In this document: in pieces, positions 13,581 to 17,507 of the stretch
Position numbering within the stretch: the first letter of the stretch is position 1
Layout of the letters: each line of letters starts with the position of its first letter
Source of the DNA: Bryobacteraceae bacterium
GTDB lineage: Bacteria > Acidobacteriota > Terriglobia > Bryobacterales > Bryobacteraceae
Direction: 5' to 3'
DNA length: 31,125 bases
NCBI GenBank assembly: GCA_049521275.1
Contig: JBEKOZ010000008.1
Location: forward strand, 1 to 31,125
The notes under the pieces: generated by a model
What the model saw: only the letters and a program-made list of their open reading frames with translations
What the model was told of the DNA's origin: nothing
Databases searched by the model: none
Made by a program: the position numbers and the translations under genes

Positions 13581-13637
13581 AGCGCCTGCCCCTCGCGCGG
13601 AAACGAATCCTACTCGAGCCGCGCCACTCTCTCAGGT

Positions 13638-16526
13638 TTACAAGTGTGGTTTGAGGAATCGCCCGGTGTGGGATGTTTTGCATGCCGCGACGTTCTCAGG
13701 AGTTCCGCTCACGACCACTTCCCCGCCCGCGTGACCGCCTTCGGGACCGAGGTCGACGACGTAATCGGCGGTTTTGATGACATCGACGTGATGTTCGATC
13801 AGCAGAACGGTATGCCCTGCATCCACGAGCCGGTGCAGAGATTCGAGCAGCCGCTCGATGTCCGCGAGATGCAGGCCGGTGGTCGGTTCGTCGAGGATGT
13901 AGACTGTGTGTTTCGACCGCTGCAGCTTGCTCAACTCCGTCGCGATCTTGATGCGCTGCGCTTCGCCGCCGGAGAGAGTCGTCGCCGACTGGCCCAGCGT
14001 GAGGTAACCCAGTCCGAGATCACTCAGCACCTGAATCTTCTTGCCCACGGCGGGTTCGGCGGCGAAGAATGTTACGCCTTCTTCAATCGACATGTTGAGC
14101 ACGTCGTCGATGGTTTTTCCGTGGAGCGTAACATCCAACGTTTCGGCATTGAATCGCGCGCCTTTGCAGGCGCCGCAAGTAACTTCCACATCGGGCATGA
14201 AATAGAGCTGCGTGGTGATGGTGCCTTCGCCCTGGCATTCCTCACAGCGGCCTCCTTTCACGTTGAAACTGAATCGTCCCGCCTTGTAGCCTCTCTCGGC
14301 CGATAGAGGAGCTTCCGTGAACATGTCACGGATATTGTCGTAGAAGCCGATGTAGGTTGCCGGATTCGAGCGGCTGTTTCGTCCGATCGGAGATTGATCG
14401 ATGTTTACAACTTTGTGGACGTGCTCGATGCCGTCGATGCCGTCGTGATCGCCGGGTAGAGTGCGGGTATCGACCAGGCGCTTCCATAACGCCTGATAGA
14501 GGATCTCATTGATCAGCGTGCTCTTGCCCGAGCCGGAGGCTCCGGTAATCGCCACCATGACGCCGAGCGGGAACGTCACGTCGATGTTCTTGAGGTTGTT
14601 TTCGCGCGCGCCGCGCACGGTGAGCGATTTGCCATTGCCTTGGCGGCGCTGCTTCGGCGTCGCGATCCTCCGTCTGCCTGACAGGAACTGACCGGTCGGC
14701 GACGCTTTACAGGCGAGCACGTCCTTTATGGTCCCCTGGACCACCACTTCTCCGCCGTGCACGCCAGGGCCTGGTCCCATTTCCACGATGTGATCGGCCG
14801 CGCGAATGGTGTCCTCGTCGTGCTCGACCACGATGACCGTGTTGCCGATATCCCGCAAACTTTCGAGCGTCGCGATCATCTTCACGTTGTCTTTCGGATG
14901 GAGGCCGATGCTCGGCTCGTCGAGAACGTAGAGCATTCCCATCAGACCGGAGCCGATTTGGGTGGACAAGCGGATTCGCTGGGACTCACCGCCGGAGAGC
15001 GTTCCAGAGCGCCGGTTGAAACTCAGGTAATCGAGTCCGATGCCCAGCAATAATTTCACCCGGGCGCGGATCTCGCCCAGCACATGCCGGCCGGCGTCCG
15101 CACCGCGACCCGTGGGCTTGATGGCGCCGAGAAACGCGTGCAGTTCGTCGAAGTGAAGCTGCCCCATGTGGTAAATCGTCCGGTCATCGATCGTGAACAG
15201 CAGACGCGTCGCCCGCAGGCGCGCTCCTTTACAATCGGGGCAGGTGTGTTCGACCATCACTTTGTCGAGCCACGCCTCCATCCCTGAGCTGGCTTCGCCG
15301 CGTTGGCGATAGCGGCGGTATTGGCGTTCGATTCGCCGCGCAATTCCGCCGAAGCCGACCTCTTTGCCCACCGAATCCTCGCGCTTGACCTTTGCGTCCG
15401 GTGGCATGACGATCACGACCTTCTTGCCATCAAGGCCGTTCAGGATTATGGTTCGCACGCTCTCGGGGAGCTCCCGCCAGGGAGTTTCGAGAGAGAAGCG
15501 GAAAGCTTTTGAGAGGCTATAGATCATTCGTCCGTCCCACGTGTCGGGGTTGTATTTGAAGGCCTCGCGAACGAAGCAGCCTCCGGCGATGCTACGGCGC
15601 GGATCCGGAACCAACAATTCGGGATGGGTCAGTTTATGGACGCCGAGTCCGCCGCAAGTCCGGCAAGCGCTCTCGGGGTTGTTGAACATGAAGTATTCGG
15701 GCTGGATGTCGCCATAAGTGAAATGGTGGGTCCTGCTGGAGAGCCCCTTGTAGAAACGGTCGGCGGCCGCGCTGCCGACGCCTTTGACGATGTGCACCTG
15801 GACGAGTCCGTCGCCAACGAGAAGCGTTGCGGCGATTCCCGCTTTCATCGCTTTTTCATGCTTTCGGGCAACAATAAACCGATCGACCACCGCATCCATA
15901 TGGTTGACTTTCGAGTCGTCGAGTTCGATCACCGCCGAAATGTCGACGAGCTTGCCGTCGAAAATCATGCGGCGGCAACCTTTCTTGCGGATCTCGGTGA
16001 GGACGAAGTCCAAGTCCTCGCCGTACTGTTTGAAGACGGGTGCGCGAAGTTCGATCTCGGCGCCTTCGGGCAAAGACATGATCGCTTCGAGAATCTGGCT
16101 GGAACTGCGGCTCGGAGTCGGCTCGCCCGTGCGGGGACAGTGCGGCTGGCCGATGGTGGCGTAAAGAAGATTGAGGTAACTCGCGATGTCGGTCATGGTG
16201 CCGACGGTTGAGCGAGGATTGTTGGCGATGGTTTTCTGCTCGATCGAAATGACCGGGGAGAGGCCGTAGATGAAATCGACATCGGGCTTGGCCACCTGAG
16301 CGACGAAACGCTTCGCGTAGCTCGAAAGCGATTCCATGAAGCGGCGCTGTCCTTCGGCGTAAATCGTATCGAAGGCGAGGCTCGACTTGCCCGATCCCGA
16401 GAGCCCGGTAACGACCACGAGTTTGTCGCGCGGAATCTCGAGCGATACATTCTTGAGGTTGTGCACGCGCGCGCCGTGGACTGCGATCGTGGTGCGCACC
16501 GCGGTCTTCGGCGTTCTAGAAGCCAT
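13638..16526 (-). CDS. uvrA: UvrA-family ABC ATPase (excinuclease ABC subunit A or paralogue)
   Basis: [62 protein letters not shown]-terminal Zn finger CEECQG...[25 protein letters not shown]. Confidence 0.92.
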
Positions 16527-17457
16527 CGGGCGTTGCTCCCAAGTGAACGAACGCCAGCTCCAGGACCTGAATATTGCTCTTCTTGGTCAGCTGCACCGGC
16601 GTCGAAGCGACTCCAATCAAGCCGCGATCGGCAAGATACTCGCAGGCGGAAGTAATCCCTTCGATATTTAAGCTCCTCTTAAAGTCGGCCTCGATCTCCG
16701 TCGCGGATCGCGCCTCACCCACCTCTTGCAAATAGTCCAGAATGGGGCGAAAGAGCGCGTCCGTCCGATCCGCCAGATAGCGGTCGACTGCGTCTAAAGC
16801 GCCTTGCACAGCTTTGCGCGTTTTTTTCTGATTCAGCAGATCCGAATAGATCGTGCGGAAGAATGTAGGGTTGAGCTTCAGCGCTTGCGGAATCACCTCG
16901 CGATCCGCGAGTAGCCGCGCCGCGATGACCTCGATCCGGGCCAGAGGAGTGGCCGCGTAGAGAATCCAGAGCGCGGCGTAGTCCAGATCGCCGCGAGTGA
17001 TGAGCCATTTGTGAGCCTTGTAGATCGAGCCGACAGCCTGTGTCGCCGCACTCAACAGTTGCACTTGCACGTCACGCTCGCCGATCTCGTGCAGCCTTTC
17101 GCAGAGATGGGCGATCGTAGGATCGTGGGTGTAGAGCAACCGGCCCTTCGCCAGCAATGAGTGCATGAAGGAGTTTCGCACTGCTCCTTCCACGGTCTTG
17201 CGGAACTCGGCACGCGGGATCAGGAATGCGTGGACGTTGACGTTGCCGGCGAGCAGCGCGAGGCTTCCCGTTTCCGCCTTCTTTTCGTCGACCGTAATCA
17301 AGGCCAAGTCGATATCGGACTTCGCCCACACCGTATCGTGCGACAGACTACCGCAGAGGATGGCAGCCAGGATCGTCCTGTCGCCCTTCACCTGCGCGAC
17401 GAGATGGTCCAGCGCCTCGGTGAACTGCTTCCGAATCTCAGGTATCGAAGCGCTCAT
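16516..17457 (-). CDS. Pol-beta-superfamily nucleotidyltransferase-domain protein with helical middle and predicted C-terminal wHTH
   Basis: hGS-x10-DhD signature ([19 protein letters not shown]). C-terminal [28 protein letters not shown] is wHTH-like (inference). Stop overlaps the uvrA start by 11 bp. Confidence 0.72.
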
Positions 17458-17475
17458 GTTCGACGATCACTTCGG

Positions 17476-17507
17476 ATTATCATAACCTGAACGAAGTTGA
17501 TTAGAAC
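17476..17507 (-). promoter_or_regulatory. Candidate -10 (TATGAT/GATAAT) plus a near-consensus GTTC-N7-GTTC LexA box upstream of the NTase-uvrA pair
   Basis: Minus strand reads GTTC-TAATCAA-CTTC-GTTC-AGGT-TATGATAAT. Plus-strand 17493-17507 is GAAG-N7-GAAC (1 mismatch). Confidence 0.35.

Follow-up and report, generated by a model that had tools for sequence, protein, structure and literature searches.

The 31,125-nucleotide (nt) stretch analysed here, referred to throughout as the window (positions 1 to 31,125 of contig JBEKOZ010000008.1, GenBank assembly GCA_049521275.1), belongs to a Bryobacteraceae metagenome-assembled genome (MAG) of 5.46 Mb in 827 contigs, 79.6% complete, and the names carried by its close homologues point to Bryobacterales / Candidatus Solibacter. 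On its minus strand lies a gene for a nucleotidyltransferase (NTase)-like protein, followed immediately by one for a full-length UvrA paralogue, and the two form a conserved, co-inherited two-gene unit. The NTase gene (16516..17457, minus strand) encodes 313 amino acids (aa) with an NTase, HEPN-like and winged-helix architecture of the YgxA/kanamycin nucleotidyltransferase (KNTase)-like kind, as judged from its open reading frame (ORF), its Pfam match, an AlphaFold2 model and fold matches. The NTase-linked, or W-type, UvrA (13638..16526, minus strand; 962 aa) was recognised from its ORF, the family models NF001503 and TIGR00630, and a phylogenetic tree.

The NTase stop codon (TAG, 16516-16518) lies past the UvrA ATG (16524-16526) and 11 nt inside the UvrA ORF, giving the overlap (16516..16526, minus strand) that a first-pass annotation of the sequence had read as translational coupling. 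An identical offset, in which UvrA residue 1 begins 7 nt ahead of the last NTase codon, was observed at 15 related loci, which supports both the choice of the UvrA ATG and coupled translation.

Conservation and apparent spread of the NTase-UvrA pair

The window UvrA is an accessory paralogue. The canonical uvrA of the genome is found on contig C303, where it scores 1312 bits and outscores the window gene, while uvrB (contig C216, 1002 bits) and uvrC (contig C45) both lie outside the window; the first-pass annotation, which had called the gene a paralogue with no uvrB or uvrC nearby and had proposed looking for a canonical set elsewhere, is borne out by all three. A third UvrA-like gene, a 776-aa ORF on contig C4, lacks the UvrB-binding region and is class II-like. 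Two other full-length UvrA types, with ~45% and ~40% full-length identity to the window protein, occur in nearly all of 61 genomes of the genus, and the W-type (at least 80% identity) was present in eight of them (G000, G009, G012, G016, G022, G044, G067, and G068; the 61 include G021 and G052, neither of which has the module or contributes sequence here). One of the eight, G044, consists of 10 contigs and encodes all three full-length types, which shows that the extra copy is not a mis-binning artefact. The NTase gene sits directly 5' of the W-type UvrA gene in 8/8 of these genomes, and none of the other window neighbours is conserved among them.

A scan for NTase relatives, restricted to one genome per species, returned at least 559 loci, the best 80 of which (66-85% identity) were examined. 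According to their record titles these came from Acidobacteriota (Bryobacterales, Blastocatellia, Vicinamibacterales, and Terriglobia), Planctomycetota, Gemmatimonadota, and Latescibacterota; some derived from MAGs labelled Heliomicrobium, a label that was not relied on. A UvrA 79-92% identical to that of the window sits downstream at 64 of the best 80 loci (within 150 nt at 44), and for 10 of the 16 without one the sequence ends less than 3 kb past the NTase gene. Searching 1.84 billion cluster representatives with the NTase yielded 748 clusters at E ≤ 0.001, and in all six distant homologues (30-47% identity) for which DNA was examined, a UvrA gene follows directly. The pairing, whose conservation across phyla the first-pass annotation had suggested checking, is therefore kept in at least four phyla, with NTase identity falling as low as 30%. 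At the 49 loci compared, pairwise distances of the two proteins were correlated (Mantel r = 0.77, p = 0.001), the NTase diverging ~1.8 times faster than UvrA.

Distribution of the unit is sparse. A sample of 250 further genomes from across the phylum turned up the NTase family in only one, compared with 8 of 61 in the genus, and W-type UvrAs from different phyla share 82-85% identity where the canonical UvrAs of the same genomes share 51-58%. Because it combines sparse distribution with high identity across phyla, the NTase-UvrA unit appears to have spread horizontally; searches of plasmids and phages returned no copy of the pair. Four peat, permafrost or wetland metatranscriptomes yielded short contigs that match clade-specific stretches of uvrA and a portion of the NTase gene at 95-100% identity, though these may also stem from DNA carry-over. 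Contigs from a wetland metatranscriptome, X23, have 0-1 differences at 13608-13757 and 15230-15477, covering a clade-specific part of uvrA and the stretch across its stop codon, and suggest in situ expression, DNA carry-over being another possible source. Literature searches turned up no publication on the NTase-UvrA pair, and YgxA was mentioned only in passing. The pair probably represents an undescribed form of protection against DNA-damaging compounds.

A promoter belonging to the pair was confirmed in part. The first-pass annotation had credited it with a plausible -10 element of its own, and a candidate, the -10-like TATGATAAT (17476..17484, minus strand), does lie 18 nt 5' of the NTase ATG and is kept in the two nearest loci, L037 and L038, but a consensus scan of the minus strand of the window called neither a complete sigma-70 promoter nor a terminator. 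Alternatively, transcription of the gene that ends 60 nt before the pair may run through into it. A LexA box was also considered: L037 has GAAC-N4-GTTC just 5' of the -10, and the window has only CAAC-N3-GTTC (by eye), which was taken as chance. About 11 Bryobacterales loci share a block, TTGACT-N18-TAnATTGGCC, 5' of the NTase gene that is not found in the window. Seen as TTGACT-N18-TA(A/C)ATTGGCC in L041, L043, L044, L049, L051, L052, L055, L061, L065, L066, and L069, it also has a conserved spacer (..GAAAAGCG..). From its sequence, the block is probably a sigma-70 promoter rather than an operator, although an operator may overlap it.

Remodelled domains of the linked UvrA

Scoring 1212 bits with NF001503 (cut-off 1147) and 1178 bits with TIGR00630, the window protein lies above the UvrA equivalog cut-off. 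It has a UvrA_inter domain (PF17760, residues 141-247, E = 4.5e-19), and with it a UvrB-binding domain, as well as a UvrA_DNA-bind domain (PF17755) over residues 302-405. UvrA paralogues known as class II have no UvrB-binding domain and protect antibiotic producers; the likening of the window protein to this stand-alone DrrC/UvrA2 type, made in the first-pass annotation, does not hold, given the PF17760 match and the equivalog score.

The phylogeny that had been proposed as a check places the protein elsewhere. Maximum likelihood analysis of 33 UvrAs, with a midpoint root only, recovered the NTase-linked UvrAs as a 100/100-supported clade with a stem length of 2.18 and a very shallow crown, apart from the canonical clade of the genus and from the third ('B') clade, and not grouped with canonical UvrAs. 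Identity between the window UvrA and the canonical UvrA of its own genome is 45.6%.

Divergence from canonical UvrA was focused on two regions. One is the UvrB-binding-like domain (PF17760; residues 131-250, 15777..16136, minus strand): across residues 119-270, identity to canonical UvrA is 28%, compared with 77% within the clade. The other is the insertion (DNA-binding) domain (PF17755; residues 301-425, 15252..15626, minus strand), with 21% identity to canonical UvrA and 76% within the clade. In the former, A226 (15849-15851) and A232 (15831-15833) are the equivalents of R216 and E222. The R216 position is Arg in 17/17 other full-length UvrAs and replaced in 56/56 NTase-linked ones, by Ala in 51 of 52 crown members and by Gln, Gln, Ser, and Gln in four distant NTase-linked UvrAs; the E222 position is Ala in 50 of the 52 crown members. 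The R216A E222A substitutions have been named as disrupting the UvrB interaction surface, and the domain likely binds Mfd as well (PMC3025350). The suggestion of the first-pass annotation that the NTase might replace UvrB as partner would be consistent with this loss of R216/E222, seen in the sequence of every NTase-linked UvrA. Zn module 1 has changed too: its ligands in the window protein are C130, T133, S264, and H267, and the clade majority is C/T/S/H as opposed to the canonical C/C/C/C, the fourth ligand being His, not Cys, in all linked UvrAs and two more ligands being gone in the crown group. The Walker A lysines K47 and K668 are invariant in 52/52 clade members, and both ATPase sites, the DNA-binding arginines, the QSPIGR...R basic motif and Zn modules 2 and 3 are kept in the window UvrA. 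What emerges is an accessory lineage of UvrA whose ATPase and DNA-binding motifs are intact and whose partner-binding surfaces are remodelled.

The window UvrA is close to class I UvrA (E. coli; Geobacillus stearothermophilus, 2R6F; 9GXK) in its full length, two ABC modules, both Walker A lysines, UvrB-binding-type and insertion domains, and Zn modules 2 and 3, and phmmer matched it to 9GXK at E = 2e-301 and to 2R6F at E = 1.5e-287. It differs from class I in its separate clade, the Ala residues at R216/E222 and the C/T/S/H ligands of Zn module 1, and in being always NTase-paired, sparse and apparently horizontally spread. With class II (DrrC, Ecm16, and Deinococcus radiodurans UvrA2; 7SH1, 2VF7) it has in common that it is an accessory copy beside a canonical one, that it likely acts without UvrB, and that protection against DNA-binding compounds is a plausible role. 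The W-type pair is also sometimes found beside an ABC exporter, and drrC is located with the drrAB ABC exporter genes. Unlike class II, the W-type keeps the UvrB-binding domain, and the window UvrA scored much lower against class II proteins (632 and 478 bits) than against class I (1006 bits); no biosynthetic cluster was seen near the W-type pair. To our knowledge, no dedicated NTase partner has been described for a class II UvrA.

These data also bear on the plainest alternative, that the gene is an ordinary second housekeeping uvrA feeding UvrB/UvrC and that the upstream gene is unrelated or merely co-transcribed. A score above the equivalog cut-off, the presence of every UvrA domain, and a genus in which several full-length UvrAs are the rule would all be expected on that account. 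However, adjacency is kept across phyla and over an identity range of 30% to 92%, the clade is separate with a long stem and has specifically lost the Arg that contacts UvrB/Mfd, and the gene is sparse and apparently horizontally acquired. The conserved NTase-UvrA pairing largely refutes this ordinary account, and we regard it as highly improbable.

Several further UvrA arrangements were observed. The class II-like gene on contig C4 (G000, L003:742-3987) stands in a run with genes for a 111-aa helix-turn-helix (HTH) protein of the ArsR family and a 151-aa ligand-binding protein of the AHSA1/SRPBCC type, a second set of 'small regulator/ligand-binder + accessory UvrA' in the same genome. The third, 'B'-clade UvrA type (~40% identical; L027:4073-7827 and L032:2895-6658, in G044 and G063) retains the equivalents of R216/E222; it adjoins a divergent MutY-like HhH-GPD/NUDIX_4 glycosylase (315 aa) in G044, and a divergent, unannotated ORF of equal size occupies the same place in G063. 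Both genes of the pair are apparently N-terminally short in G068 (L029:4935-8570), where the NTase ORF (221 aa) aligns from residue 120 and the UvrA ORF (893 aa) from residue 83, which may reflect decay or assembly error. Planctomycetaceae and Latescibacterota carriers of the module also have tandem-fused double UvrAs with open frames of 1899-2141 aa (L118/L122, G079:C2:389826-395585; L119/L123, G080:C148:12378-17966), matching the double-UvrA fusion described in Planctomycetes (PMC8567305).

The NTase protein and its fused relatives

Pfam identified a Polbeta domain (PF18765) in residues 24-113 of the window NTase (E = 9e-7), and no curated NCBIfam family matched above its cut-off. An AlphaFold2 model built from 40 homologues, with a mean predicted local distance difference test score (pLDDT) of 94 and a predicted template modelling score (pTM) of 0.88, resolved three parts and confirmed the helical middle and wHTH-like end that the first-pass annotation had read from the letters. 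The Pol-beta-type NTase domain spans residues 1-120 (17098..17457, minus strand). A helical HEPN-like/KNTase-C-like domain, recognised from model and fold, follows at residues 121-235 (16753..17097, minus strand), and in the model residues 236-313 (16519..16752, minus strand) form a C-terminal winged helix of three helices and a beta-hairpin. When the winged helix was modelled by itself from its single sequence, pLDDT reached only 55 and the model was discarded.

Across the 40 diverse homologues, conservation is at least 90% at each of G36, S37, D48, and D50, in agreement with the GS...DID motif noted earlier; W44, D112, and D129 are invariant, and K147, K150, R186, and E187, which like D129 belong to the helical domain, are nearly so. 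The strand expected to supply the third carboxylate (NVHAF) had been read as carrying His, and H76 was confirmed there: the strand has no acidic residue in most members, H76 being invariant in close relatives and variable across the wider family. In the KAEKW helix, the family consensus Glu is His in the window NTase.

Fold comparisons matched the whole chain to the structural-genomics protein 3C18 (Z = 21.7, 282 residues aligned, residues 11-307) and to the YgxA model (TM 0.68/0.72). The three-part architecture superposes full length on the YgxA group (Bacillus subtilis YgxA, 3C18, PF22339; TM 0.67-0.72), and function is unassigned in both, yet identity to the window NTase is 14-17%. The window NTase had no match to PF22339 (YgxA-like_sub_bind) at E ≤ 0.1, and relatives matched below threshold, or without a qualifying stretch (P0122), at E values of 1e-7 to 8e-3. 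We know of no documented link between YgxA and UvrA. The next matches were ANT(4')/KNTase (Z = 15.7, TM 0.57/0.68), ANT(4')-IIb, LinB, and the Hailong protein HalB. HEPN-domain structures matched residues 129-237 (Z = 10-11.5), and the tail matched the winged helix of Hop2 (Z = 9.1) and a BlaI-like regulator, Rv1846c (Z = 7.7). An MNT/HEPN type VII toxin-antitoxin was considered and rejected, as the MntA model (NF047752) scored 24 bits against a cut-off of 60 and the protein has R186-E187...Q191 and no Rx4-6H motif.

With ANT(4')/KNTase (1KNY, 6UN8) and LinB the window protein shares an NTase and a helical HEPN-like domain in one chain and the GS and DxD motifs; it differs in its low identity (11-12%), its extra C-terminal winged helix, a best ANT family score of 14.4 bits against a cut-off of 560, and its lack of any aminoglycoside-resistance link. 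ANT(4') is a dimer with active sites at the interface. Tandem-duplicated NTases of 625-657 aa made up 8 of the 150 best representatives, and in 4/4 tandem forms examined GS...DxD was retained in exactly one half and lost in the other, the pattern expected of a dimer in which one nucleotide site is sufficient and selected. These one-site duplicates fit a dimer with interface sites like that of ANT(4').

Such motif conservation invites the view that the protein is purely an enzyme partner, recruited by UvrA to nucleotidylate a drug, a lesion, a DNA end or UvrA itself, functionally in UvrB's place and with no role as a regulator. The at least 90% conservation of GS and DxD and their survival in one half of the tandem forms would agree with this, as would drug-modifying NTases (ANT(4'), LinB, and ANT(6)) as the nearest characterised folds, an 11-nt overlap and co-inheritance that suggest stoichiometric production, and the lost UvrB contact residues. 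Yet the expected third-carboxylate strand is non-acidic, the window NTase has His for the consensus Glu of the KAEKW helix, no acceptor substrate can be inferred, and the domain fusions of some relatives indicate a transcriptional role. We consider a purely enzymatic partner rather unlikely, though it ranks second among the readings weighed here.

The fusions take two forms. Two separate 50%-identity clusters carry an extracytoplasmic function (ECF) sigma factor (regions 2 and 4) N-terminal to a complete NTase module, and another cluster has an AraC-type HTH in that place. UvrA is the next gene in sigma- and AraC-fused NTases, and one sigma fusion, found on three contigs, has UvrA next to it in each, here also without R216. 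The sigma fusions adjoining UvrA tie the NTase module to transcription control, and a role as DNA-binding regulator, one of the options raised in the first-pass annotation, would gain support from both kinds of fusion. In Ada (enzyme plus AraC HTH) and BirA (enzyme plus winged helix), transcription is governed by a reaction carried out on a ligand or on the regulator's own chain; the NTase relatives with AraC or sigma fusions suggest a similar logic, by analogy and not by homology.

Gene neighbourhoods and the proposed role of the pair

No third gene is universally conserved with the pair, and those that recur are co-directional with it. Loci of the Blastocatellia type have three genes ahead of the NTase, for an alpha/beta hydrolase, a VOC (glyoxalase/bleomycin-resistance) protein and a DUF1801 protein, and an AlkZ-like crosslink glycosylase adjoins it at L067, L087, and L109. 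Insertions between NTase and UvrA encode an ABC exporter, a DUF4886 protein, or leucine-rich repeat or ankyrin proteins, and genes for a PNPOx-like protein and an aldo-keto reductase separate one tandem form from its UvrA. Recurrent neighbours such as these typically go with detoxification and tolerance of genotoxins, and the link to DNA damage or drug tolerance drawn in the first-pass annotation fits the VOC protein, ABC exporter and AlkZ-like glycosylase among them. The short gap between NTase and UvrA, with its repeated and mutually unrelated insertions, also looks like a cargo slot (L057, L068, L071, L092, L098, L104, and others), holding in addition a papain C1 protease, a pyrroloquinoline quinone (PQQ) beta-propeller protein and a PhyH dioxygenase.

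In the window itself, VgrG, DUF6931 and C39-like peptidase genes lie 5' of the pair on the same strand, with a convergent ORF 3' of it. The upstream genes form an orphan island of type VI secretion system type (17518-22878, minus strand), comprising VgrG (862 aa; Phage_GPD, Phage_base_V, and Gp5_C), a 199-aa ORF, the DUF6931 protein and the C39-like peptidase (354 aa). None of the island genes is conserved beside the pair in relatives; since VgrG, the DUF6931 protein and the C39 peptidase are kept with it in none of them, this context is taken as coincidental.

Defence against phages or mobile elements is another role that the neighbourhoods speak to. Here the UvrA-like ATPase would sense foreign or modified DNA and the NTase would make a nucleotide signal or modify a target, an idea in keeping with the patchy distribution and near-identical copies in different phyla, two loci among HEPN, PIN, toxin-antitoxin and methyltransferase genes, the resemblance of the fold to Hailong HalB, and the occurrence of UvrA-like proteins in the MADS system. 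PADLOC, however, gave no convincing match for the NTase, the best being to unrelated candidate models (E = 3e-4 and 6e-4), and matched the UvrA to mad3/mad8 by UvrA homology only. The pair includes no nuclease, pore or other effector, its recurrent neighbours are repair and detoxification genes, and no phage or plasmid copies were found. A defence role is, in our view, quite improbable.

Considering these results together, we tentatively favour, at slightly under even odds (roughly 0.45), a horizontally mobile two-gene accessory cassette that would provide a second, UvrB-independent route against DNA-binding or DNA-reactive compounds, with the NTase as sensor, regulator or partner. For the NTase protein itself, and with similar reserve, we prefer a nucleotide- or ligand-dependent role in which it would control the operon and probably dock on UvrA. 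Acting as a dimer, it would be the sensor-transducer of the pair, binding or transferring a nucleotide upon a ligand or damage signal. Control of the operon could then pass through the winged helix, or, in those lineages that have one, through an ECF sigma or AraC fusion, while the NTase probably docks on the remodelled UvrA domain. UvrA would scan DNA and remove or flag an adduct or bound drug, by analogy with the reported action of DrrC and Ecm16. Genes for a VOC protein, for an ABC exporter or for an AlkZ-like crosslink glycosylase often extend the cassette.

Several observations weigh against this proposal. Interaction, activity, ligand and induction are all postulated, on the strength of sequence, predicted structure and gene neighbourhood. 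Residual use of UvrB is possible because the UvrB-binding domain is recognisable and the score passes the equivalog cut-off, and one or two altered contact residues are no proof of lost UvrB binding. Within the winged helix, the recognition helix has an acidic/hydrophobic consensus, ACEWLA, of a kind seldom used to read DNA sequence-specifically; no operator was identified, and the Bryobacterales upstream block looks like a plain sigma-70 promoter. Six of the best 80 loci have 4-6 kb of 3' sequence yet no UvrA, detoxification-type neighbours occur in a minority of loci only and are absent from the window, and no metatranscriptome contig spans the NTase/UvrA junction.

A bolder version would make the pair a DNA-damage or drug-sensing device. 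The remodelled UvrA would scan, and the NTase, docked at the UvrB site, would convert its signal into a nucleotidyl mark or a transcription output, with the sigma and AraC forms driving RNA polymerase directly in an adaptive response independent of LexA and UvrB. We judge this distinctly unlikely.

What sets the favoured cassette apart from class II systems is a full-length UvrA that keeps a UvrB-binding-type domain and has lost its UvrB/Mfd contacts, a dedicated NTase-like partner, and an apparent spread among soil phyla. If the two proteins cooperate, they would constitute a new route for dealing with genotoxic natural products or for DNA-damage signalling and would give the uncharacterised YgxA-like proteins a first link to a function. 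Resistance-guided mining for DNA-targeting compounds in Acidobacteriota, Planctomycetota, and Gemmatimonadota would then also gain the pair as a marker.

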